From Candidatus Eiseniibacteriota bacterium (GTDB lineage: Bacteria; Eisenbacteria; RBG-16-71-46), in NCBI GenBank assembly GCA_963707915.1, contig OY970178.1, positions 800,001 to 864,000 of the forward strand: a stretch of 64,000 nucleotides of DNA, in the 5' to 3' direction. A program made the translations under genes and the position numbers. Each line of letters starts with the position of its first letter. Position 1 is the stretch's first letter. Of the stretch, positions 7,798-28,672 are shown piece by piece. The notes beneath the pieces were generated by a model. It was not told where the DNA came from and did not search any database. It saw nothing but the letters and a program-made list of their open reading frames with translations.

Positions 7798-10311
7798 ATG
7801 AAGCTTCCGCTGTCCTGGCTGCGCGACTGGATCGAGCTGGATGCCACCCCCGAGGCGCTGGCCGACGCGCTCACCCGCCGCGGCTTCTACGTCGAGGGCA
7901 TCGAGGCGCGCGGGCACTCCTACCCGGGCGTCGTCGTGGCCCGGGTGCTCGAGGTCGCGAAGCACCCCAACGCCGACAAGCTCTCGCTCTGCCGCGTGGA
8001 CGCGGGCGCGGGCGAGCTCGCCATCGTGTGTGGCGCGCCGAACGTCCACGCCGGCATGGTGGCGCCGCTGGCCACCATCGGGGCGAAGCTGCCCGGCGGG
8101 CTGGTCATCAAGAAGAGCAAGATCCGCGGCATCGAGAGCCAGGGCATGCTCTGCTCGGCGGACGAACTCGGCTTCTCCGACGACCACTCCGGCATCGTGG
8201 ACCTGCCGGCCTACCTCGGCGCCGCCGAGGGGCTCGTGCCGGGCCGGGCGCTCGACGAGCTGCTGCCCCCGCCCGACGCGGTGCTCGAGGTCGAGGTGCC
8301 GTTCAACCGCCCCGACGGGCTCGGCGTGGCCGGCCTGGCGCGCGAGGTGAAGGCCGCCTTCGGCCTGCCCTGGACCCCCGCGGCCGAGGAGCGTCTCAGC
8401 GCGCTGTGGCGTGGCGACGGTGAGTTCGACCTCGAGATCGGGGACCGCGAGGGCTGCCCGCGCTACATCGCGCAGGTGGTCGAGAACGTGCGGATCGGAC
8501 CGTCGCCGGGCTGGCTGCAGCGCCGGCTCGAGGCGATCGGCCAGCGGCCCATCAACAACGTCGTGGATCTCACCAACCTGGTGCTCTTCGAGTTCGGCCA
8601 GCCGCTGCACGCCTTCGACCTCGACCGGCTGGCGGGTCCCGCCATCCGCGTGCGCCGCGCCCTCGCCGGCGAGCGTTTCACCACGCTCGACGGCAAGGAG
8701 CGCACGCTCGACCCCGAGGTGCTGCTGATCTGCGACCGCGACCGGCCGGTGGCGATCGCGGGGGTGATGGGCGGCGCCGACAGCGAGGTCCGCAGCGGCT
8801 TCGCGGAGCCCGGCGCCACCGGCGCGCCGGCCCTCGGCGCCACCACGCGGCTGCTGCTGGAGTGTGCGTGGTTCCAGCCGCGCCGCATCCGCCGCGGCTC
8901 GCGCGTGCTCGGGCTCTCCACCGAGGCCTCGAAGCGCTTCGAGCGCGGGGTGGACCCGCGTGGCGGCGCTGCCGCGACGTCGCGCTTCCTGGCCCTGCTC
9001 GCCGAGGTCTCGCCGGGCATGACGCTGGGGCCGGCGGGCGAGCGCGCCCACGGCACGGCCGTGCCCGCTTCGCTCGTGCTGCGCGGCTCGCGGTGCCGGC
9101 GCGTCGTCGGCGTCGACTTCCTGCTCGAGGAGGCCACGCGCCACCTCGAGGGGCTGGAGTTCGAGGTCGAGCCGCGCGTCACCCCGGGCGCGTCCGGGTG
9201 GGAGCTCGCCGTCGCGGTGCCGAGCTGGCGCGCCGACGTCACGGTCGAGGACGATCTCATCGAAGAGGTGGCGCGCTCCCACGGTTACGACCGCATCCCC
9301 GAGACGCCGCTCGAGACCCGCGGCGCCTACGCCACTCGCAGCCCGCGCGAGCGCGGCATCGAGCGCGCCCGGCGCGCCATGCTGGCCCGCGGCTTCACCG
9401 AGGCCTGGACCGGCACGCTGGTCTCCGAGCGCGAGGCGATCGAGACCGCGGCCCTGCTGGGAGCCGCGCCCGACTCGCTGGTGCGCCTGCAGAACCCGAT
9501 GAGCCGCGAGGGGGAGGTGCTGAGGCCCAGCCCGGTCGCGGGGCTGCTGCGCGCCTGCGCGCACAACCTGCGCCAGGGCCTGCCCGCGGTACGGCTCTTC
9601 GAGGTCGGCACGGGCTTCGCCGCCGCCGCGCCCGCGACGGACCGCGCGGCGCTGCCGGTGGAGTCGCTGATGCTCGCCGCGATCGTGACCGGCCCCCGCT
9701 ACGCGCACGCCCACGATGCCGCGCAGCAGGCGGTGGACTTCGACGAGGCGAAGGGCCTGTGGGAGGCCTGGCTGGAGGAGATGAGCGTTGACACCCCCGG
9801 ATGGCGGGCCTATGCTGCGCCCGGCTGGAAACTCGGTGCCAGTGCGGAAGTTGCAGCACGGACTTCGCGCATTGGATGGGGTGGATGCCTGGGGCAGCCG
9901 CTGCTGCGCGGGGTGGACATCGAGGTCCCGGTGTACCTCTTCGTGGTGCATCTCGACCCGTTGTTCGAGGACCTTCCGGCGGCGCGCCGGGTGACGCTGC
10001 CGGGCCGGTTCCCGCCGGCGAATCGCGACCTCGCCTTCTTCGTGCCGTCGTCCCGGTCGCACCAGGAGGTCGAGCAGGTCCTGGCCCGCGCGGCGCAGCC
10101 GCCCGACGGGGAAGGGTCGCGACTCGCCTCGATCGAGTTGTTCGACGTCTACACCGGCCCCGGCACCCCCGAGGGCATGAAGAGCCTGGCGTACGCGCTC
10201 CGCTTCGAACACGCGGAACGCACGCTGCACGAGGCCGAGGTCCAGGCCATCCAGGACCGCATGGTCGAAGCCGTCACCCGCGAATGCCACGGGAGACTGA
10301 GAGAGAAATGA
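7798..10311 (+). CDS. pheT: Phenylalanine--tRNA ligase beta subunit
   Basis: Motifs HPNADKL, IVCGAPNV, SQGMLCS, GQPLHAFD, RFERGVD, DLIEEVAR and a C-terminal FDX-ACB domain. Confidence 0.96.
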   Translation: MKLPLSWLRDWIELDATPEALADALTRRGFYVEGIEARGHSYPGVVVARVLEVAKHPNADKLSLCRVDAGAGELAIVCGAPNVHAGMVAPLATIGAKLPGGLVIKKSKIRGIESQGMLCSADELGFSDDHSGIVDLPAYLGAAEGLVPGRALDELLPPPDAVLEVEVPFNRPDGLGVAGLAREVKAAFGLPWTPAAEERLSALWRGDGEFDLEIGDREGCPRYIAQVVENVRIGPSPGWLQRRLEAIGQRPINNVVDLTNLVLFEFGQPLHAFDLDRLAGPAIRVRRALAGERFTTLDGKERTLDPEVLLICDRDRPVAIAGVMGGADSEVRSGFAEPGATGAPALGATTRLLLECAWFQPRRIRRGSRVLGLSTEASKRFERGVDPRGGAAATSRFLALLAEVSPGMTLGPAGERAHGTAVPASLVLRGSRCRRVVGVDFLLEEATRHLEGLEFEVEPRVTPGASGWELAVAVPSWRADVTVEDDLIEEVARSHGYDRIPETPLETRGAYATRSPRERGIERARRAMLARGFTEAWTGTLVSEREAIETAALLGAAPDSLVRLQNPMSREGEVLRPSPVAGLLRACAHNLRQGLPAVRLFEVGTGFAAAAPATDRAALPVESLMLAAIVTGPRYAHAHDAAQQAVDFDEAKGLWEAWLEEMSVDTPGWRAYAAPGWKLGASAEVAARTSRIGWGGCLGQPLLRGVDIEVPVYLFVVHLDPLFEDLPAARRVTLPGRFPPANRDLAFFVPSSRSHQEVEQVLARAAQPPDGEGSRLASIELFDVYTGPGTPEGMKSLAYALRFEHAERTLHEAEVQAIQDRMVEAVTRECHGRLREK
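9788..9816 (+). promoter_or_regulatory. Putative internal sigma70 promoter inside pheT
   Basis: TTGACA-N17-TATGCT within a patch of atypical A/T-ending codons. Confidence 0.5.
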
Positions 10312-10604
10312 CCGACACCACGACGATGACGAAGGACCTGGATCGCCTGGCCGAGCGGGTCGAGAAGGCCGCCGCCGTGCTGCAGGCCCAGCGGGCCGAG
10401 CACGCACGCCTGCAGCGCGAGCGCGACCAACTCGCCGCGCGCGCCCAGGAACTCGAGCAGAAGCTGCAGGGGCAGGACCCGGCCGCGCTCCTCGCCGAGC
10501 TGCAGGGGCTGCGCCGGGAGCAGCGCGACTGGCAGGCGGAGCGCCGCGACGTGGCGCTGCGGATCGAAGCGCTGGTGACGAAGCTGGAGCGGATCGAGGG
10601 CTGA
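10308..10604 (+). CDS. Coiled-coil protein, ZapB-like
   Basis: 98-aa all-helical heptad protein between pheT (ATGA overlap) and zapA, matching the usual pheT-zapB-zapA-rny order. Confidence 0.7.
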   Translation: MTDTTTMTKDLDRLAERVEKAAAVLQAQRAEHARLQRERDQLAARAQELEQKLQGQDPAALLAELQGLRREQRDWQAERRDVALRIEALVTKLERIEG

Positions 10605-10624
10605 GCCCGTTCCCCGAGGACGCC

Positions 10625-10936
10625 ATGGAAGCCAAGACCCTGGTTCAGGTGCAGATCTTCGGTCAGAACTACACGATCCGCGGCGAGGCCGACCAGGGCT
10701 ACATCCTGGGGGTCGCGGCCTACGTGGACCGCAAGATGCAGGAGATCACCGAGAAGCTCCCCACGACCTCGATCTCGAGCTCCCTGTCGAAGATCGCGGT
10801 GCTCGCGGGGCTGAACATCGCCGACGAGTTGATGAAGGAGCGCGCGCAGCGCGAGCGGCTCGAGCAGCAGATGAGCACCCGCACCGCGCGGCTGAACGCC
10901 GTCCTGGACGAGATCCTCCAGGACACCACGAAGTGA
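10625..10936 (+). CDS. zapA: Cell division protein ZapA
   Basis: Motifs VQIFGQNYTI, VAAYVDRKM and AVLAGLNIADEL. Confidence 0.92.
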   Translation: MEAKTLVQVQIFGQNYTIRGEADQGYILGVAAYVDRKMQEITEKLPTTSISSSLSKIAVLAGLNIADELMKERAQRERLEQQMSTRTARLNAVLDEILQDTTK

Positions 10937-19888: not shown

Positions 19889-20763
19889 GCCCGCGCCTGG
19901 GCCGCGTCGCCATCTCGGGCCACATCGGCCGGCCCGAGGTGCGCCGGGCCACCGCGCTGCTGCGCACGCGGCTCGCCCGGCGCGGCTGCGACGTCCGCGT
20001 CGAGCAGGCCCTGGCCGCCACCCTCGACCGCGAGGGGCAGCCGCTCGCCCGGCTCGCCGCCTGGTGCCAGCTGCTCGTCGCGCTGGGCGGCGACGGCAGC
20101 GTGCTCACCGGCGGCCGCGCGCTCGCCGGGCGCCGCGGGGTCCTGCTCGGGATCAACTTCGGCGGCCTCGGTTTCCTTGCCGCCGCGGAGCAGGGCGAGC
20201 TCGTGCCCGCCGTGGAGGCGGCGCTCGCGCGCGCCTGGCCGGTCGCGCCGCGCCGGCTGCTGCGCGCGCGGGTGCTGCGCCGCGGGCGGCCGGTGGCCCG
20301 GGCCTTCGCCATGAACGACGCGGTCGTCAAGGGCATGGGCGGGTACGCCGCCATCCACCTGCAGATGCGCGCCCTCGGCCAGGACCTCGGCCACCTGGTG
20401 GCCGACGGGCTCATCGCGGCGACCGCGGCGGGCTCGACCGCCTACTCGCTCTCGGCCGGCGGCCCGGTGCTCTCGCCCGAGGTGGAGGCCATCGTGGTCA
20501 CGCCCGTCTGCGCGCACTCGCTGGGCAGCCGCTCGCTCGTGCTGTCGCCGGACGACGAGCTGGCGCTGCGGCTCATCGGCTCGCTCGACCAGACCGTGCT
20601 CATGCTCGACGGGCAGGAGCACGTTCCGCTCGAGCCCGACGACGAGATCCGCATCCGCCTCGACCGCACCGCCGTGCGGGTCGTGCGCAACCCGGGCCGG
20701 CCCTTCGCGCACTCACTCCAGGTCAAGCTCGGCTGGCAGGGGAGTACGCGGCGGAGCATGTGA
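19885..20763 (+). CDS. nadK: NAD(+) kinase
   Basis: Motifs LGGDGS, GGLGFL and DGLIAATAAGSTAYSLSAGGP. Confidence 0.92.
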   Translation: MSPRLGRVAISGHIGRPEVRRATALLRTRLARRGCDVRVEQALAATLDREGQPLARLAAWCQLLVALGGDGSVLTGGRALAGRRGVLLGINFGGLGFLAAAEQGELVPAVEAALARAWPVAPRRLLRARVLRRGRPVARAFAMNDAVVKGMGGYAAIHLQMRALGQDLGHLVADGLIAATAAGSTAYSLSAGGPVLSPEVEAIVVTPVCAHSLGSRSLVLSPDDELALRLIGSLDQTVLMLDGQEHVPLEPDDEIRIRLDRTAVRVVRNPGRPFAHSLQVKLGWQGSTRRSM

Positions 20764-20765
20764 TC

Positions 20766-22448
20766 GTGCTCGAGCGCCTGGTCATCCGCGACCTCGTGCT
20801 GGTGGAGCGGGCCGAGGTGGAGTTCGGCCCCGGTCTCAACGTGGTGACCGGCGAGACCGGCGCCGGCAAGTCGCTCCTGGTGCAGGCCGTGGACCTGCTG
20901 ACCGGCGGCCGCGCCGACCCCGGCGTGGTGCGCGACGGCGCGAAGGCCGCGGTGGTCGAGGGCGAGTTCCGCCCGTCCGCGCGCGCCAACCTGCGGATCG
21001 GGCCGCTGCTCGCCGCCTGGGGCGTCGAGTACGACGGCGAGAGCCTCATCCTGCGGCGCGAGGTCCAGGCCGGCGGCAAGAGCCGCGCCCTGGTGAACCA
21101 GTCGGCGGTGACGCGCGGCGCGCTGCGCGAGCTCTGCGAGGCGCTCGCCGACCTCCACGGCCAGCACGAGCACCAGAGCCTGCTGCGCCCCGGCGCGGGA
21201 CTCGACACGCTCGACCGGCTCGCCGCGCTCGACGGCGAGAGCGCCCGCTACGCGCAGGCGCTGGCCGCCTGGCGCGCCGCCGCCGCGCAACTCGAGGCGC
21301 TCGAGCGCTCGCTGGCGACCCACGCCGAGCGGCGCGAGGAGATGGAACAGGCGGCGCGCGAGCTGGACGAGGCCCGCCTGCGCGTCGGCGAGGAGGAGGA
21401 GCTGCGGCGCGAGGCGACGCGCCTCGCCCACGCCGACCGCCTGCGCGAGCTGGTGGGGCACGCGCTCGACCGGCTCTCCGACGGCGAGACCCCGGCGGTG
21501 GACGCCATCGCCCAGGCCGCCCGCGCGCTCGAACAGGCCGCCGCCCTCGACCCGGGCCTGGCGGGTTCCCTGCCCGCGCTCGACGAGGCGCGCATCGCCA
21601 CCGCCGAGGTGGCGCGCACGCTCGGCGACTACGCGTCGCGCCTCGAGGCCGACCCGGCCGCGCTCGAGCAGATCGAGTCCCGGCGCGAACGGATCGCCCG
21701 CCTCGAGCGCAAGCACCGCCGCGACGTGCCCGGGCTGATCGCCTGGCGCGAGGAGCTCGCCCGCGAGCTGGCCACCGGCGCGGACGCCGTGGCCGCGCTG
21801 GCGGAGGCGCGCGCCGCCGCGCAGCAGACCCACGCCGGCTGCCTGGCCGCGGCACGGGCGCTGTCGCGCCGGCGCCAGGCGGCAGCGCGGGACTGGGGGA
21901 GGAAGCTCACGGGGGAGATGAAGCCGCTCGGGATGCCGCACGCCACCCTCGGCTTCCAGGTCGAGCCGGACGACCGCCCGGAGCCTGGATTCGGCGCGAA
22001 CGGGCTCGACCAGGTCGAGATCATGTTCGGCGCCAATCCCGGCGAGCCGGTGCGACCGCTCCAGAAGGTCGCCTCCGGCGGGGAGCTCTCCCGGTTGATG
22101 CTGGCTCTGAAGGTAGCGCTGGAAGCCCAAGACCCCGTTGACCTTCTGTTGTTCGATGAAGTGGATTCCGGGGTCGGCGGGGCGGTCGCCCAGGCGGTCG
22201 GTGAACGTCTCAAGCAGCTCGCCCGCCATCGCCAGGTCGTATGCGTGACCCACCTGCCGATGATCGCCGCGCTCGCCGCGCATCACTTGCGGGTCGACAA
22301 GTCCGTGACGGCCGGCCGCACGTTGGCGCGCATCGCCGCCATCGATGGCAGCGAGCGCGTCGAGGAGCTCGCCCGGATGCTGGCCGGCGACCGCGTCACC
22401 GACACGACGCGGCGGCAGGCGCGCGAACTGCTGGGGGCCGGCGCGTGA
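20766..22448 (+). CDS. recN: DNA repair protein RecN
   Basis: Motifs TGETGAGKS, HGQHEHQ, ASGGELSR, FDEVDSG and CVTHLP. Confidence 0.96.
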   Translation: MLERLVIRDLVLVERAEVEFGPGLNVVTGETGAGKSLLVQAVDLLTGGRADPGVVRDGAKAAVVEGEFRPSARANLRIGPLLAAWGVEYDGESLILRREVQAGGKSRALVNQSAVTRGALRELCEALADLHGQHEHQSLLRPGAGLDTLDRLAALDGESARYAQALAAWRAAAAQLEALERSLATHAERREEMEQAARELDEARLRVGEEEELRREATRLAHADRLRELVGHALDRLSDGETPAVDAIAQAARALEQAAALDPGLAGSLPALDEARIATAEVARTLGDYASRLEADPAALEQIESRRERIARLERKHRRDVPGLIAWREELARELATGADAVAALAEARAAAQQTHAGCLAAARALSRRRQAAARDWGRKLTGEMKPLGMPHATLGFQVEPDDRPEPGFGANGLDQVEIMFGANPGEPVRPLQKVASGGELSRLMLALKVALEAQDPVDLLLFDEVDSGVGGAVAQAVGERLKQLARHRQVVCVTHLPMIAALAAHHLRVDKSVTAGRTLARIAAIDGSERVEELARMLAGDRVTDTTRRQARELLGAGA

Positions 22449-23932
22449 CGGTCCGCGGCGGCCGACCTGCGAGCCCCGGGCGCGAGGAGTTCCGCGCGCT
22501 CGCGGCCGGCGGCCGGCTGGTCCCGGTGTCCCGCGACGTGCCCGCCGACCACGAGACGCCGGTCTCCGCCTTCCGCAAGCTCGACGACGGCGCGCATGCC
22601 TTCCTGCTCGAGAGCCTGGAGGGCGGCGAGAAGTGGGGACGGTTCTCCCTGCTGGGGAGCCGGCCCGCGGCGGTCTTCACCGCCCGCGGGGAGCGCTGCG
22701 AGATCCTCGAGGACGGCGTCACGCGCGCCTGCTCCGGCCGGCCGCTCGACGAGCTGCGCTCGCTGCTCGCGTCCCGGCAAGCCGTCGCCCTGCCGGGATT
22801 GCCGCGCTTCTGCGGCGGCGCGGTGGGCTACCTCGGCTGCGGCGCCGCGCGCTGGTTCGGCCGGGGCCCCGCGCGGGGGACGGCGGAGCCCGCGCCGCCC
22901 GATGCCGTGTTCCTGCTCACCGACGTCGTCACCGTCTTCGACCACGTCGCGCACACCGTCCGGGTCGTGACCCACGCGCGCGGCGGGGACGACCCCGGCA
23001 CGGCATGGGAGCGGGCGGTCGCGCGCCTCGACGCGGAGATCGCGCGGCTCGAGGTCCCGCAGGCGTGGCCGGCGACGGCCGCCGCGACGCCGCTCGCCGA
23101 GCCGGTTTCGTCGTCCACGACCGCGGAGTTCGCGGCCGCGGTCGAGCGCGCCCGGGAGCACGTCCGCGCGGGGGACGTGCTGCAGCTGACCCTGGCGCGG
23201 CGCCTGAGCGCCCCGGTGCAGGTCCCCGCCTTCGAGGCCTACCGGGCCCTGCGCCGGGCCGCTCCGTCCCCCTACGCCCACTTCCTTCGGCTCGGTGAGC
23301 TGTGCATCGCGGGCTCTGCGCCGGGCTCGCTGCTGCGGCGCGTGGAGGACGTGGTCGAGGCGCACGTCCTCACCGGTAGGCGGCCGCGCGGCCGCACGGC
23401 GGAGGAGGACCGCAGGCTGGAGGAGGAACTGCTCGCCGGGGAGCGGGAGCGCGCCGCCCACGCCCTGGGAGTGGACCTGGCGCGCAGCGACGTCGGCGAC
23501 GTCGCCGAGCCCGGCTCGGTCGGCACCTGCGGGTGGCTGGAGGTGGAGCGCCATTCGCCGGCGATGCACCTGGCCTCCAGCGTGCGGGGCCGGCCCCGGC
23601 CGGATGCCGGGCCTCTGGACCTGGTGCGGACCTGCTTCCCCGCAGGGAGCGACTGCGGCGTGCCCCGGGCGCGCGCCCTGGAATTGATCGCGGAGCTGGA
23701 GCCGGCGACACGCGGGATCCACGCCGGGGCGGTGGGATACTTCGACCTGCGCGGCGGCCTGGACCTGTGCAGCTCCGCGCGCGCGCTGGTCTTCACGCGA
23801 GGACGGGCCGAGTGGAGCGCCGGGGCCGTGATCGGCGCGGACACCGATGCCGAGGCGGCGTGGCGGGAGACCGTCGACCAGGCCCGCGCGCCCGGGCTCG
23901 CCCTCCAGCAGGCCGCGGGGACCGTGCGATGA
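22445..23932 (+). CDS. trpE: Anthranilate synthase component I homolog with degenerate active site
   Basis: Intact N-terminal ETPVSAF and FLLESLEGGEKWGRFS. Chorismate-binding motifs are altered: ERAAH, LTGRRPRG, PAGSDCGVPR, GIHAG, ETVDQA. Confidence 0.85.
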   Translation: MTVRGGRPASPGREEFRALAAGGRLVPVSRDVPADHETPVSAFRKLDDGAHAFLLESLEGGEKWGRFSLLGSRPAAVFTARGERCEILEDGVTRACSGRPLDELRSLLASRQAVALPGLPRFCGGAVGYLGCGAARWFGRGPARGTAEPAPPDAVFLLTDVVTVFDHVAHTVRVVTHARGGDDPGTAWERAVARLDAEIARLEVPQAWPATAAATPLAEPVSSSTTAEFAAAVERAREHVRAGDVLQLTLARRLSAPVQVPAFEAYRALRRAAPSPYAHFLRLGELCIAGSAPGSLLRRVEDVVEAHVLTGRRPRGRTAEEDRRLEEELLAGERERAAHALGVDLARSDVGDVAEPGSVGTCGWLEVERHSPAMHLASSVRGRPRPDAGPLDLVRTCFPAGSDCGVPRARALELIAELEPATRGIHAGAVGYFDLRGGLDLCSSARALVFTRGRAEWSAGAVIGADTDAEAAWRETVDQARAPGLALQQAAGTVR

Positions 23933-24519
23933 TCGGGGTCATCGACAACCACGGCGCCTTCACCGGCAGCCTGCTGCAGTGCCTCGCGACGCTCGGCGCC
24001 CGTCTCGAGGTCCACGACAGCGGCACGGTGTCGGCCGACGCGCTGGCCGCCCGCCCGCTCGCGGGCCTGGTCCTGTCCTGCGGGCCGGGGACGCCCTCGG
24101 CCGCGGGGGTCACGCTCGCGGCCATCCGCCGATTCGCCGGCCGCATGCCCATCCTCGGCATCGGCCTCGGCCACCACGCGCTGGCCGAGGCCTACGGCGC
24201 CCGCCTGGTGCCGGCCCCGCACCTCCTGCACGGCGCCAGCTGCCCGGTGCTGCACCGCGGACGCGGGCTCTTCGCCGGGCTCGACAACCCCTTCCCGGCG
24301 GCGCGCTATCATGCGCGGACCGTCGAGCGCGGGTCGCTTCCCGACGCGCTCCAGGTCGCGGCCTGGACCCCGACCGGGGAAGTCATGGGGCTGCGGCATC
24401 GCGATCACGACAGTTGGGGTGTACAGTTCGCGCCCCAGTCCATCCTGACCGGCCCGGGCCCGAGGCTCGTGGAGAACTTCCTCTCGCTGTGCCGACAACC
24501 AAGGGAGGTACCCCAGTGA
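23929..24519 (+). CDS. trpG: Anthranilate synthase component II (class I GATase) homolog lacking the catalytic triad
   Basis: Family fold is evident (VIDN, GPGTP, GEVMGLRH), but GVCLGHQ>GIGLGHH and QFHPES>QFAPQS. Confidence 0.85.
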   Translation: MIGVIDNHGAFTGSLLQCLATLGARLEVHDSGTVSADALAARPLAGLVLSCGPGTPSAAGVTLAAIRRFAGRMPILGIGLGHHALAEAYGARLVPAPHLLHGASCPVLHRGRGLFAGLDNPFPAARYHARTVERGSLPDALQVAAWTPTGEVMGLRHRDHDSWGVQFAPQSILTGPGPRLVENFLSLCRQPREVPQ

Positions 24520-25523
24520 TCCGAACGGCCATCGCACGCGCCGTGCTCCGCGAAGACCTGCCGCGGGAGCTGGCGCGCGCCAGCATGGTGCAGATCCTCG
24601 ACGGCGACGCCACCCCGGCGCAGATCGCCGCCCTCGCCGTGGCGCTCCGCATGAAGGGCGAGGCGCCCGAGGAGATCGCCAGCATGGCCGAGGCGATGCG
24701 CGAGCGCGTGCCGCCGCTCCGCACCAAGCGCACGCCGCTGCTCGACACCTGCGGCACCGGCGGCGACAACGCCGGCACGTTCAACATCTCGACCACCTCG
24801 GCCATCGTGGTGGCGTCGTGCGGGGTGGCGGTCGCCAAGCACGGCAACCGCGCGGTGTCGAGCCGCACCGGCAGCGCCGACGTGCTCGAGGCCCTCGGCG
24901 TGGGCCTCGACCTGACGCCCGGGAGCGCGGCGCGCTCGCTCGACCTGCTGGGCATCACCTTCCTGTTCGCCCCCAACTACCACGCCGCGCTGCGCCACGC
25001 CGCCGGCCCGCGCCGCGAGATCGGCGTGCGCACCATCCTCGACCTGCTCGGCCCGCTCACCAACCCGGCCGGCGCGCGACGGCAGTTGATCGGCGTGTTC
25101 TCCGACCGCCTGGTGCGCCGCATCGCCGAGGTCCTGAAGCTGCTGGGCAGCGAGCGCGCCTGGGTCGTGCACGGCCTCGACGGGCTGGACGAGCTGACGG
25201 TGCTGGGCCGCTCACACGTCGCCGAGCTGGACCGCGGCGAGATCCGCGAGTTCGAGGTGGACCCGGTGCCGCTGGGGCTCGCGCACCCCGACCGCAGCGG
25301 GATCGAGGGCGGCGACGCGCTCACCAACGCCGCGCGGATCCGCGCGGTGCTGGCGGGGGAGAAGGGGCCGGCGCGCGACATCGTCGCGCTCAACGCCGGC
25401 GGCGCGCTGGTGGTGGCCGGCGTGGTGGAGAACCTCGCCGCGGGCGTGGCCCAGGCCCAGGAGGCGATCGACAGCGGCCGGGCCGCGCGCAAGCTCGACG
25501 ACCTCCAGGCGTTCCGGGACTGA
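24516..25523 (+). CDS. trpD: Anthranilate phosphoribosyltransferase
   Basis: Motifs DTCGTGGD, TFNIST, KHGNRAVSSRTGSADVLE and DGLDE, all intact. Has its own GGAGG SD. Confidence 0.95.
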   Translation: MIRTAIARAVLREDLPRELARASMVQILDGDATPAQIAALAVALRMKGEAPEEIASMAEAMRERVPPLRTKRTPLLDTCGTGGDNAGTFNISTTSAIVVASCGVAVAKHGNRAVSSRTGSADVLEALGVGLDLTPGSAARSLDLLGITFLFAPNYHAALRHAAGPRREIGVRTILDLLGPLTNPAGARRQLIGVFSDRLVRRIAEVLKLLGSERAWVVHGLDGLDELTVLGRSHVAELDRGEIREFEVDPVPLGLAHPDRSGIEGGDALTNAARIRAVLAGEKGPARDIVALNAGGALVVAGVVENLAAGVAQAQEAIDSGRAARKLDDLQAFRD

Positions 25524-25546: not shown

Positions 25547-26170
25547 ATGTTCTGCATCCGCTGCGGCAACGGCCTGCCCGACGAGGCGGCGTTCTGCCCG
25601 TCCTGCGGCGCTCCGGTCGCGAGCGTCCCGGACGCGGGCGGGTCCGCGGCCCCGCCCGCGGCGATCCCCGGACCGTGGAGCGCGGCGCCGGCCGCACCAG
25701 CCGCCGCCGTCACGACCCCGAGCTACGCGGGCTTCTGGCGCCGGCTCTGGAGCTACCTGATCGACCGCTTCATCCTCGGCGTCCTGTTCACCCCGGTCGC
25801 CTTCCTGGTCATCCTGCCGGTCGCGGCCAGCCAGTCGAGCGACTGGATGGACACCGACCTGCCGGGGGAGGCGATCGCTGCGGTGATGGGCGCGGTGCTC
25901 ACCGTGGTGTTCCTCGCGCTGCTGGCCAGCTGGCTCTACTACGCGCTGATGCAGAGCTCGTCGCGGCAGGCGACGCTCGGCCAGATGGCGCTGGGCCTGC
26001 GGGTCACCGACCTCGAGGGACGCCGCATCTCCCTCGGGCGCGCGAGCGGGCGCCTCTTCGCGACCGTGCTCACCGGAATGACCTTCGGGCTCGGCTACCT
26101 CGCGGTGCTCTTCACGTCGCGCAAGCAGACCCTGCACGACCTGGTCGCCGGCACCGTGGTGGTGCGCTGA
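25547..26170 (+). CDS. RDD family membrane protein with N-terminal zinc ribbon
   Basis: CxxC..CxxC, YAGFWRR..IDR, QATLGQMALGLRV and QTLHDLVAGT. Confidence 0.9.
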   Translation: MFCIRCGNGLPDEAAFCPSCGAPVASVPDAGGSAAPPAAIPGPWSAAPAAPAAAVTTPSYAGFWRRLWSYLIDRFILGVLFTPVAFLVILPVAASQSSDWMDTDLPGEAIAAVMGAVLTVVFLALLASWLYYALMQSSSRQATLGQMALGLRVTDLEGRRISLGRASGRLFATVLTGMTFGLGYLAVLFTSRKQTLHDLVAGTVVVR

Positions 26171-26269
26171 CCGGCGGCCGGGGGCCGGAGGGGCCCGCCG
26201 GCGCGCGAGGGGCCCGCGGCACGGGCGGCCGTCCGCTGCGCACCCCGCGTGACGGGGGTCCGCCCGCTG

Positions 26270-26278
26270 TGCTATAAA
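26270..26278 (+). promoter_or_regulatory. Extended -10 promoter for tRNA-Arg
   Basis: TGcTATAAA 11 nt upstream of the tRNA. Confidence 0.55.
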
Positions 26279-26289
26279 TCGCCGGTTGC

Positions 26290-26366
26290 GCGCCCGTAGC
26301 TCAATTGGATAGAGCGTTAGCCTCCGGAGCTAAAGGTTACAGGTTCAAATCCTGTCGGGCGTACCA
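26290..26366 (+). tRNA. tRNA-Arg(CCG)
   Basis: Acceptor stem GCGCCCG/CGGGCGT, anticodon arm TTAGC-CTCCGGA-GCTAA, T-loop GGTTCAAATCC, encoded CCA. Confidence 0.97.
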
Positions 26367-26381
26367 CCTCCTCCGCCCCCC

Positions 26382-27446
26382 ATGCCGGACATCCCACCCG
26401 TGACCCCCGATCCCGATCCGGAAGCGTCCGGCCTCCGTGGCTTCCCGGCCGCCGGCGACCACGCCGTGCGCGAGATGGCGGGCATGTTCGACCACGTCTC
26501 CGGCCGCTACGACCTGCTCAACTCGATCATGACGCTCGGGCAGGACCGCGCCTGGCGGGCCGCCCTGGCGCGCGCCGTCCCGGACTCCGCGCGCGTCGTG
26601 CTCGACCTGTGCACCGGCAGCGGCGTCTCGCTCGAAGGGCTGCGGCGCCCCGGCCGCGTCCTGCTGGGCGTGGACGCCAGCCTGCGCATGCTCGAGCTCG
26701 CCGCGGACGAGCACGGCCCGTGGGGCTGGGCCCCGCGCCTGGCTTGCGCCGACGCCTTCCGCCTGCCGTTCCGCGACGACGCGCTGGACGCCGTCACCAT
26801 CGCCTTCGGCATGCGCAACCTGCGTCCCCGGCCGGGAGCGCTGGCCGAGCTGGCCCGCGTGCTGGCGCCGGGCGGCACGCTGGTCGTGCTCGAGGCCACC
26901 GCGCCGCGCCCCGGCGTGCTCGCGCCCTTCCACCGGTTCTACGCGCGACGGATCATCCCGCTGCTGGGGCGCCTGTCGTCCGACCCGGTGGCGTACCGCT
27001 ACCTGAGCGGGTCGATCTTCGAGTTCGGCACGGGGGAGGAGTTCGAGCGCGACCTCGCGGCGGCCGGCTTCGGGATCGCCACGCGACGGGCGTACATGTT
27101 CGGTGCGGCCCGCCTGTGGGCCGCACAGAGACTGGCCGGGGCATCGGACGCGGCGTTGCGAATTGCCCGGTTCCCGGGCCCGGGCTCGGGCGATTTCGCG
27201 CAGGCCAGGCGTCTCCGGGCACTCGAGTGGCGCTGGTGGACGGTCACCCGCGCCGCCGTCTCGGCCGCCCTGACCGGGAGCCTGGTGTGGGCCCTGTTCA
27301 CATGGGTCAAGTGGCGCCCGCTGATGAACTTGGAGCCGTGGCAGGACCGCGCGCTCTGGGTCCTGATCCTCGCCGGCCTGGCGGGGTTCGGGATCCGCAC
27401 TCTCGCACTGGTGTTGCGATTGCTCGGCCCGCCCCCGACCGGCTGA
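26382..27446 (+). CDS. UbiE/MenG family methyltransferase with C-terminal two-TM extension
   Basis: Motifs MFDHVSGRYDLLN, VLDLCTGSG, TIAFGMRN and YRYLSGSI, followed by two hydrophobic helices. Confidence 0.85.
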   Translation: MPDIPPVTPDPDPEASGLRGFPAAGDHAVREMAGMFDHVSGRYDLLNSIMTLGQDRAWRAALARAVPDSARVVLDLCTGSGVSLEGLRRPGRVLLGVDASLRMLELAADEHGPWGWAPRLACADAFRLPFRDDALDAVTIAFGMRNLRPRPGALAELARVLAPGGTLVVLEATAPRPGVLAPFHRFYARRIIPLLGRLSSDPVAYRYLSGSIFEFGTGEEFERDLAAAGFGIATRRAYMFGAARLWAAQRLAGASDAALRIARFPGPGSGDFAQARRLRALEWRWWTVTRAAVSAALTGSLVWALFTWVKWRPLMNLEPWQDRALWVLILAGLAGFGIRTLALVLRLLGPPPTG

Positions 27447-27617: not shown

Positions 27618-28646
27618 ATGGTGTCGCGAGAGAAAGCCCTCGAAGAACTGCTCGGTCTCACGGGCAGGCCGGGGCCGAGCACGCGCGCCGAACTGCTCCA
27701 GCGCGTCCTCGAGACCACGCTCAGCCTGGTCGAGGCCGACGGTGCGACGCTGGTCGCACCCCACCAGGGCCGTCTCGAGCGCCTGGCGGCCACGCCGGAG
27801 CACTGCGACCTGCCGCCGCAGGAGGCCCCCCGGCGCGGCAGCGAGTTCACCCGCCTGCTGGTGCACGTCAGCCGGCCGCTGTGCATCCCCGACCTGGCCG
27901 CCGACTCGCGCGTCGAGGAGAGCGACGCCTGCCCCGAGGTGGATGCGGGCCCGGCCCTGATGGTGCCGATGCGGCGCCGCGAGCACGCGTCCGGCTACCT
28001 GGCGGCGTTCCGCTCGCGCGGCGCCCCGGTCTTCACCGCCGCCGACGCGCGCCAGCTCTCGCTGCTCGCCGCGTGGACCGCGATGGGGCTCGAGAACCTG
28101 CGGCTCTGCGAGAGCGTCGAGAAGCTGGCCGTCACCGACGACCTGACGCAGGTCTACAACTACCGCTTCCTCAAGATGGCGCTGAAGCGCGAGCTCAAGC
28201 GCTCGATGCGCTTCGGGCAGGAACTCGGGCTCGTCATGCTCGACGTCGACAACCTGAAGGGCTACAACGACCGCAACGGGCACCTGCGGGGGTCCTACCT
28301 GCTGCGCGAGATGGCGGCGTTGCTCGCCCGGCAGGTCCGCTCCTTCGATCTCATCGCCAAGTACGGCGGCGACGAGTTCACGCTCATCCTGCCGCAGACC
28401 GGCATCGACGGGGCGATGGTGGTCGCCGAGCGCATGCGCCGCGCGGTCGAGGAGCACGCCTTCCCGCTGGAGGACGCCGGGGTCATCACCATCAGCCTGG
28501 GGGTCGCGATCGCGCCACACGACGCGGAGGACGGCCAGACTCTCCTGCGGATGGCCGACCAGGCCCTCTACGTGGCGAAGCGGCAGGGCAGGAACCGGGT
28601 GCTGACCTACCGGAACGTGACGGACCAGGCAGGCACGCTTCGTTGA
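27618..28646 (+). CDS. GAF-GGDEF diguanylate cyclase
   Basis: GAF domain, TDDLTQVYN, DVDNLK, I-site RSFD and intact GGDEF. Confidence 0.93.
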   Translation: MVSREKALEELLGLTGRPGPSTRAELLQRVLETTLSLVEADGATLVAPHQGRLERLAATPEHCDLPPQEAPRRGSEFTRLLVHVSRPLCIPDLAADSRVEESDACPEVDAGPALMVPMRRREHASGYLAAFRSRGAPVFTAADARQLSLLAAWTAMGLENLRLCESVEKLAVTDDLTQVYNYRFLKMALKRELKRSMRFGQELGLVMLDVDNLKGYNDRNGHLRGSYLLREMAALLARQVRSFDLIAKYGGDEFTLILPQTGIDGAMVVAERMRRAVEEHAFPLEDAGVITISLGVAIAPHDAEDGQTLLRMADQALYVAKRQGRNRVLTYRNVTDQAGTLR

Positions 28647-28672
28647 CCCTCCGGAGCAGGAGTCGGTAGACT
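28643..28672 (+). promoter_or_regulatory. Putative sigma70 promoter for acyltransferase-aminotransferase genes
   Basis: TTGACC-N18-TAGACT. Confidence 0.45.

Follow-up and report, generated by a model that had tools for sequence, protein, structure and literature searches.

Pseudoenzyme subunits such as HisZ and the displacement of operons by horizontal transfer are already known in kind, and the locus studied here has features of both: in a 64-kb stretch of DNA from a Candidatus Eisenbacteria genome (the window), the genes for the two components of anthranilate synthase (AS), trpE' and trpG', carry replacements of catalytic residues and overlap into an intact trpD for anthranilate phosphoribosyltransferase (AnPRT), where primes (E', G', C') denote altered copies. 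HisZ is an inactive paralogue of histidyl-tRNA synthetase that regulates the short ATP-phosphoribosyltransferase HisG. E'G' resembles HisZ as a dead homologue under selection which keeps an amino-acid site and whose partner would be a transferase of the same pathway dependent on phosphoribosyl pyrophosphate. However, for HisZ, a paralogue of long standing, both the complex and the role are proven, while E' and G' are young displaced orthologues from one subclade and their role is putative. The ammonia-dependent carbamoyl-phosphate synthetase I keeps the class I amidotransferase fold after loss of the catalytic Cys, as TrpG' does, but there the dead domain belongs to an active synthetase, whereas here the synthase partner is dead too. 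PabB of E. coli, of the same fold family as TrpE' (the PabB structures 1K0E and 8RP0 are among the homologues of TrpE'), has a vestigial Trp site in which a structural Trp is put to non-regulatory use; PabB is active, E' is dead. In xenologous operon displacement the displaced genes are normally lost. Here as well the genome has a full trp operon of foreign type and has lost the native trpF/B/A, but two or three native genes persist as conserved dead proteins and trpD is fully active.

In the enteric anthranilate synthase-phosphoribosyltransferase, Trp inhibits AnPRT only in complex with AS, as stated in an excerpt of PMC10464499. The same three families, as TrpE and a fused TrpG-TrpD, lie side by side in that complex, and Trp control of the transferase is the type of role proposed below. 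The enteric system differs from the locus described here in having active TrpE and TrpG, with a fusion of TrpG to TrpD, while E' and G' are dead, their genes are separate but overlapping, and their complex is putative. Full-text searches on anthranilate synthase pseudoenzymes and on tryptophan in Eisenbacteria found no description of a dead TrpE/TrpG pair. Documented cases of bacterial pseudoenzymes under selection are rare, and in this case the origin is datable, since the dead descendants can be compared with active orthologues, with the foreign operon that replaced them and with loci in which gene loss is at an intermediate stage. The origin of regulatory dead subunits such as HisZ thereby becomes testable with cloned genes, and the interest of the locus would be higher still if regulation of TrpD proved true. 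Public sources label the clade proteins 'anthranilate synthase component 1', and metabolic reconstructions from genomes would assign the ability to make tryptophan to, for example, G004, in which no trpC, full trpB or second trp operon was found.

Lesions of TrpE' and TrpG' and their distribution

The window corresponds to G000:C1:800001-864000, G000 being a 3.62-Mb single-contig genome assigned to Candidatus Eisenbacteria by the source names of related proteins; relatives are coded as genomes (G), loci or metagenome contigs (L) and protein clusters (P). In TrpE', SSPE is changed to SAPG (E294G, codon 23324), AEH to AAH (E338A, codon 23456), IAGTRPRG to LTGRRPRG, GAPK to GVPR (K408R), GVYAG to GIHAG (Y426H) and EWEETLNKG to AAWRETVDQA (E472A, K479Q), N348 is replaced by Ser, and LLES is intact. 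In this family the Glu of SPE serves as general acid, and the Glu residues in AEH and in the C-terminal ExxE..K motif bind Mg. The chorismate-binding fold and the N-terminal AS domain are present by domain match (PF00425, 194.9 bits; PF04715, 85.3 bits), and the protein falls below the cut-off of all 25 equivalog models listed, among them the curated TIGR00564 (355.3 against 517.7) and NF010086 (382 against 693). An AlphaFold model of TrpE' reaches a pLDDT of 88.6 and a pTM of 0.90, with a TM score of 0.91 to TrpE of Mycobacterium tuberculosis (5CWA); as its alignment contained active homologues, no more follows from the model than that this sequence and the fold are compatible. TrpE' is a TrpE orthologue by synteny, the order recN-trpE-G-D being found in all loci, and by its position in the tree.

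In TrpG', the triad of class I glutaminases is lost completely, with Gly79 (GGC, 24163) in place of the Cys of GVCLGHQ and Ala168 (24430) and Gln170 (24436) in place of the His and Glu of FHPES, and DNYDSF reads DNHGAF. TrpG' matches PF00117 with 125.9 bits and passes the subfamily model TIGR00566 (152.3 against 121.05) but stays below every equivalog cut-off. TrpD, in contrast, lies far above its equivalog cut-off (TIGR01245, 395.6 bits against 199.05), and the motifs with functional roles in this family, GTGGD, KHGNR, SSRxGSAD and DGLDE, are all present. Judged by the residues that they have lost, E' and G' are displaced orthologues unable to catalyse their reactions. An earlier note on the window had described the lost TrpG triad with DNHGAF, the altered Mg/chorismate motifs of TrpE, full-length open reading frames (ORFs) with 4-bp overlaps from recN to trpD, a near-canonical LLES region, intact TrpD motifs and the lack of trpC/F/B/A downstream, all of which we confirmed, the replacements codon by codon. 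It had further proposed family models, orthologues at the recN locus and a second active trp gene set as checks. The model scores are those just given; relatives, described in the following, carry the same lesions and not different random ones; and a complete canonical second operon exists in the genome.

A TrpE match was found in 35 of the 41 genomes searched, the six without one being three that share only the class and three that share the genus but are incomplete, with trpD at the start of a contig. Among the 30 loci fetched, altered motifs occur in three, namely G000, G004 (80% identity) and G005 (74%), while in 27, two of them from other species of this genus, every TrpE motif is canonical (46-61% identity); one of these 27, G026, is an unpublished genome on which no claim depends. 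The positions altered in TrpE' are accordingly canonical in 27/27 orthologous TrpE of related genomes. Protein clusters give the same picture: P0005-P0029 (25 clusters; 65-100% identity) all carry altered motifs, with a sharp switch to the canonical state from P0030 onward (57 such clusters used). E294 and E338 are canonical in 57/57 related clusters, and the G294/A338/A472/Q479 state is present in 19-23 of the 23 core clusters of the clade, against a canonical state in 56-57/57 relatives. At least ten metagenome contigs (L062-L071) also belong to this group, referred to as the dead clade below. It forms a monophyletic group among native Eisenbacteria TrpE in the tree, apart from the TrpE of the second operon, each split being recovered in 100/100 replicates (neighbour-joining (NJ) trees in Biopython, 100 bootstrap replicates).

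The triad is lost throughout as well: in nine clade copies of TrpG', Cys is replaced by Gly in 9/9, His by Pro in eight and by Ala in one, and Glu by Gln in eight and by His in one. In the 27 functional relatives, the Cys motif of TrpG could be read in 26, all of them canonical (the frame of G019 is locally garbled), and FHPES is canonical in 26 (G022 is truncated). The garbled stretch of trpG in G019 (L015) covers alignment columns ~75-115, and the N-terminus of TrpD is missing there; a frameshift in this 9-contig assembly is the probable cause. The lesions are thus clade-specific and shared, not random. The frames themselves are largely undamaged: in each of the 13 clade loci, some of which are incomplete, the E' portion is a single frame without stop, G' is intact in eight of nine fully covered copies and trpD in seven of eight, the exceptions both being G004, with 1-bp insertions at the 3' end of G' and one in trpD.

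Constraint on the altered genes and on trpD

We estimated the ratio of nonsynonymous to synonymous substitution (omega) with our own GY94-F3x4 maximum-likelihood (ML) code and compared models by twice the difference in log-likelihood (2dlnL). With three taxa on each side (dead, G000/G004/G005; active, G002/G001/G010), E gave 0.154 in the dead against 0.040 in the active set, G 0.170 against 0.032 and D 0.039 against 0.026, with 2dlnL against omega=1 of 218, 90 and 166, respectively. A branch model with nine taxa gave for background, stem and crown 0.049, 0.152 and 0.136 for E (2dlnL for crown=1, 437; for crown=background, 51), 0.042, 0.161 and 0.146 for G (153 and 31), and 0.032, 0.064 and 0.043 for D (377 and 1.6, the latter not significant). 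The independent pairs L069-L070 and G000-G005 agree with these estimates. For comparison, the genes of the second operon show omegas of 0.04-0.09 between G000 and G005. Constraint on E' and G' is therefore about three times weaker than on active orthologues, yet far from neutral, while TrpD is kept at full stringency.

The pattern of sites agrees with this. No gaps are found over 495 codons of E' and 196 codons of G' among G000, G004 and G005, and in the five-taxon crown 12 nonsense hits in E' and 4.6 in G' would be expected, with third-position composition as neutral target, whereas none is seen. None of the clade members seen lacks E' or G', although the neutral-scaled length of the crown amounts to 5.8 substitutions per codon (five taxa). 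Formerly conserved TrpE sites are still conserved in 219 of 316 cases, formerly variable ones in 66 of 179. At the same time the G+C content of the first and second codon positions has risen in E'/G' (GC1 from 0.73 to 0.80, GC2 from 0.48 to 0.58) and variation has appeared at 97 formerly conserved sites, so that constraint is relaxed but not lost. A unitary pseudogene would display an omega of ~1, lineage-specific lesions and stops or frameshifts; the values found here are 0.11-0.17 and the lesions are shared. Catalytic residues have been lost and the genes have been kept by purifying selection across the clade, and E'/G' is a retained pseudoenzyme pair rather than a case of simple decay.

The best-conserved part of E' is the allosteric motif LLES-X10-S. 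Among the 23 core clusters, L54, E56, S57, R66 and S68 are present in 23/23 and G65 in 22/23. Further pocket positions were located by alignment of TrpE' to M. tuberculosis TrpE, with residues as named in an excerpt of PMC6437058. Three of them have shifted in the dead clade, N167 to His and H432 to Tyr (both 23/23) and M278 to Gly, Ala or Ser. The allosteric pocket is thus under selection, though, judged by these replacements, canonical tryptophan binding is not its likely target. Outside the motif, 32 sites formerly invariant in TrpE are now fixed in a new state across the dead clade. Newly fixed residues include, in numbers out of 23 clusters, G294 (22), A338 (22), S348 (22), D403 (22), C404 (23; S404C), R408 (23), S458 (21), V462 (21), T467 (23) and A472 (23), and other pocket residues read H426 (17), H446 (17) and H370 (15). 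A set of 66 sites 'gained' in the dead clade was not counted in favour of new constraint, given that the sequences used for comparison go back further than the clade.

TrpD differs from its functional relatives by four clade-fixed changes, V174I/F175L/N176D (codons 25035-25043) and A296G, at sites that are invariant in the functional relatives aligned. I-L-D at 174-176 is found in 6/6 clade copies aligned and also in all seven copies read, while every functional relative aligned has V-F-N, as does the TrpD of the second operon. These three residues sit 2-4 positions after the Arg of G-x-R-T, which by its motif would correspond to Arg164 of the Sulfolobus enzyme SsAnPRT. An excerpt of PMC10520873 assigns Arg164 of SsAnPRT to anthranilate recognition.

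The second trp operon and the reduction of the native one

Three chorismate-binding genes are present in G000: trpE' of the window, a pabB-like gene and the trpE of a second operon, op2, at 1.757 Mb. The operon, 0.95 Mb from the trp genes of the window in the same genome, has the order trpE-trpG-trpD-trpC-trpF-trpB-trpA, followed by a gene similar to 3-deoxy-D-arabino-heptulosonate 7-phosphate synthase, and it encodes canonical motifs. The op2 TrpE shares 65-75% identity with proteins that bear the labels Steroidobacteraceae, Povalibacter (Gammaproteobacteria), Acidobacteria and Planctomycetota but is only ~50% identical to native TrpE, and since it groups with non-Eisenbacteria sequences, op2 was probably acquired horizontally. 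G005 has an intact copy, whereas G001 has none at the syntenic site and G004 lacks the operon, its flanks abutting there within ~80 bp (G004:C2 ~28568-28649).

Compared with G005, the op2 of G000 has a single extra base at two places, one at the 3' end of trpE, which produces an apparent E-G fusion, and one in mid-trpG. No public sequencing run contains the genome (shares 0.10-0.15); reads of three runs were examined. An otherwise identical short-read contig of 316 bases from one run lacks the extra base at the 3' end of trpE, and the frameshift site in trpG is bridged solely by a contig of a relative, also without the extra base. Both insertions are probable assembly errors. As a separate observation, the pabB-like gene (214.9 bits) adjoins a glutamine amidotransferase (126.5 bits, over the TIGR00566 cut-off); the two likely form a PabA-PabB pair or fusion, which could supply an active amidotransferase.

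At the native locus, functional relatives show the order recN-trpE-G-D-RDD-trpC-trpF-trpB (G001, G010; for G019 and G020 the gene for the RDD protein was unseen). Of the dead-clade loci, five show the region, and none of these has the native trpF/B/A. Behind the RDD gene, G000 and L065 continue straight to ubiE, G004 has a 553-codon ORF and then ubiE, and L069 and L070 retain a trpC gene, trpC', which is thus kept in two of five loci and absent in three. The trpC' product still scores as IGPS (the synthase of indole-3-glycerol phosphate), but its catalytic motifs are altered (EIK to GIL/RVL, KDF to DDL/DDV, NNRDL to GSREP, ESG to WSV), with five catalytic-motif residues lost. Between L069 and L070 its omega is 0.163, without gaps. 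The acquired op2, the loss of native trpF/B/A, a third dead enzyme in trpC' and the clade-wide extent of the lesions go beyond what the earlier note had described.

G004, a genome of the same genus, represents a further state. In its genome (L144, L161) we found no IGPS match, no TrpB match over the cut-off and no op2, and E'G'D is kept. Judged by this gene content, G004 may be a tryptophan auxotroph that keeps E'G'D. On its own branch, without op2, E' has an omega of 0.109 (omega=1 rejected, 2dlnL 47) and D one of 0.03.

Possible roles of the pair and layout of the locus

We propose a model, which we hold to have about an even chance of being right, in which the native trp operon was displaced and E'G' persists as a non-catalytic regulatory or stabilizing partner of active TrpD. 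The native operon would have been recN-trpE-G-D-RDD-trpC-F-B-A, and in one subclade a foreign, complete op2 would have taken over tryptophan synthesis. In the ancestor of this subclade, TrpE and TrpG lost the residues of their chemistry, as did TrpC where it is still present; trpF/B/A were deleted and TrpD stayed intact. E'G' may form a non-catalytic complex of AS shape, made together with TrpD from overlapping frames, and may act through the conserved allosteric module as a ligand-binding partner that regulates or stabilizes TrpD; anthranilate would be supplied from op2. A narrower version of this model, by analogy a young counterpart of HisZ-HisG, we regard as rather unlikely: the displaced AS, with or without IGPS in some lineages, would have become a ligand-sensing subunit that controls native TrpD via a remodelled Trp-type pocket. 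The earlier note had likewise suggested a repurposed pseudo-enzyme complex, as Trp/chorismate sensor or scaffold for TrpD. The retained dead pair under purifying selection stands, while the three changed pocket positions speak against canonical Trp binding and the role itself is putative.

Several points weigh against the proposed partnership with TrpD. Mutual binding of E', G' and D as well as ligand binding are putative. In the pocket, N273 is also changed to Ala and D440 is Asp or Glu, and the altered Trp-inhibition positions (M278, N273, N167, H432, D440) taken together make canonical Trp binding doubtful. It should be noted that trpD has a strong Shine-Dalgarno sequence of its own, AAGGGAGG at 24500-24507 within the last trpG' codons and kept in all clade members aligned, so that there is no obvious need for upstream translation; the conserved REVPQ tail of G' is explained by the Shine-Dalgarno sequence AAGGGAGG embedded there. 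Since op2 carries its own trpD, there is no evident need for native TrpD. The clade loci were found through similarity to E', and lineages without E' are invisible, which constitutes an ascertainment bias. All ML omegas stem from our own code and rest on NJ topologies, with stem dS near saturation, and the NG86 method gives higher omegas (0.36-0.46 for E'/G' against 0.10-0.17 for active pairs), although we trust it less than ML at a third-position G+C content of ~0.95. In G004 the 1-bp insertions (3' end of G', trpD codon ~51, ubiE) could either be errors or mark a real onset of decay after the loss of op2; an ORF-wise survey of ~40 kb found G004-specific frame breaks solely at trpD and ubiE. 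The strongest counter-argument is trpC', which was deleted independently in at least two and probably three lineages (NJ topology without support values) despite its omega of 0.163. Since a dead gene with the same omega could be deleted, an omega of ~0.15 is no proof of indispensable function, and E'/G' may likewise be expressed relics merely kept harmless.

The main rival is therefore an expressed relic that is merely kept foldable. E', G' and C' would be useless but still translated within the dxs-nadK-recN-...-trpD operon, with selection acting only against misfolding, aggregation and polarity on trpD until a clean deletion occurs. This is a serious possibility, if clearly a weaker one than a partnership with TrpD. 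Besides the apparently independent losses of the constrained trpC' in three of five loci, the relaxed constraint visible in GC1/GC2 and the newly variable sites speaks for it, as does the position in mid-operon, where only precise deletions are harmless, and the fact that trpF/B/A and, in some lineages, trpC' have already gone. A relic would, however, hardly be expected to fix 32 formerly invariant sites anew, including D403, C404, R408, S458, V462, T467 and A472 in 21-23 of 23 clusters, or to fix H167 and Y432 of the allosteric pocket in 23/23. Nor does it fit well with the presence of E'/G' in every clade member across the deep crown and with the constraint that persists on the G004 branch without op2.

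Improbable, in comparison, is a neofunctionalized protein unrelated to TrpD, in which the remodelled active site or allosteric pocket binds another molecule and which acts as sensor, binding protein or new enzyme. The conserved pocket replacements (D403 22/23, C404 and R408 23/23, H426 and H446 17/23, H370 15/23) and the continued constraint in G004, which lacks trpC, trpB and op2, would be in line with such a function. The stem shows no positive selection, though (omega 0.15; omega=1 rejected with 2dlnL 28, at saturated dS), neither a new domain nor a new gene neighbour is present, the Mg ligands and the general acid of the family are gone, and several of the new residues are not fixed.

Neutrally decaying pseudogenes, open only because 75% GC rarely yields stops, are very improbable. 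The earlier note had named decay under relaxed selection and GC pressure as its alternative, and the GC-ward drift of amino acids and the long open frames in all six frames of the genome would agree with it. However, omega=1 was rejected in every test, complete copies contain no stops, the three species compared differ by no indel, the nonsense deficit is clear, identical lesions occur across the clade, and formerly conserved sites stay conserved more often than formerly variable ones, so that this alternative is rejected. That E'G' would still be an active anthranilate synthase, working through unconventional residues or with ammonia, is the least probable of all, since, despite a confidently predicted full fold and the retention of T312 of IAGT (17/23) and H375 (22/23), TrpE' has lost K479 as well as the Glu of SPE (Gly in 22/23), the Glu of AEH (Ala in 22/23) and E472 (Ala in 23/23), no residue of the glutaminase triad is left in 9/9 copies of TrpG', and both proteins score below all equivalog cut-offs.

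The features of the locus are collected in the table. Adjacent frames from recN to trpD overlap by 4 bp each, with GTGA at recN/trpE' (22445-22448), ATGA at trpE'/trpG' (23929-23932) and GTGA at trpG'/trpD (24516-24519). Downstream of trpD follow the RDD/zinc-ribbon gene, the ubiE-type methyltransferase gene and a GAF-GGDEF gene, and none of trpC/F/B/A is found downstream of trpD in the window.

Table. Features of the recN-trp locus (positions in the window unless a contig or locus is named) and of related genes elsewhere
Feature	Position	Strand	Remarks
recN	20760..22448 (start approximate)	+	Pfam SMC_N/AAA_23; upstream of trpE in all related loci examined
trpE'	22445..23932	+	495 aa; anthranilate synthase component I orthologue, catalytic and Mg/chorismate residues replaced
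trpG'	23929..24519	+	196 aa; class I glutamine amidotransferase orthologue without triad
trpD	24516..25523	+	335 aa; anthranilate phosphoribosyltransferase, motifs intact
Zinc-ribbon/RDD-family membrane protein gene	25547..26170	+	Pfam RDD 88.7 bits and Zn_Ribbon_1; between trpD and trpC in relatives
Deletion scar	26171..26381		trpC-trpF-trpB(-trpA) here in relatives; dead trpC' here in L069 and L070
ubiE/COQ5-type methyltransferase gene	26382..27446	+	PF01209 122 bits; conserved right flank of former operon by synteny
trpC'	L069:8393-9202; L070:5687-6496		scores as IGPS, 158 and 145 bits
op2	G000:C1:1756571-1764300		L001, L006, L050, L061
pabB-like gene and adjoining amidotransferase	G000:C1:2491647-2493166	-	L002, L005

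The ubiE-type methyltransferase carries a hydrophobic-looking C-terminal extension of ~100 residues past the Pfam domain (match 32-244 of 354). A membrane-protein ORF of ~550 codons lies between RDD/trpC' and ubiE in G004 (L144:7052-8710) and L069 (~9200-10700) and is absent at that position in G000, L065 and L070. The window has a GC content of ~73-77%, and on one and the same DNA each of the six frames can stay open for several hundred codons, so that ORF length alone is uninformative in this genome.

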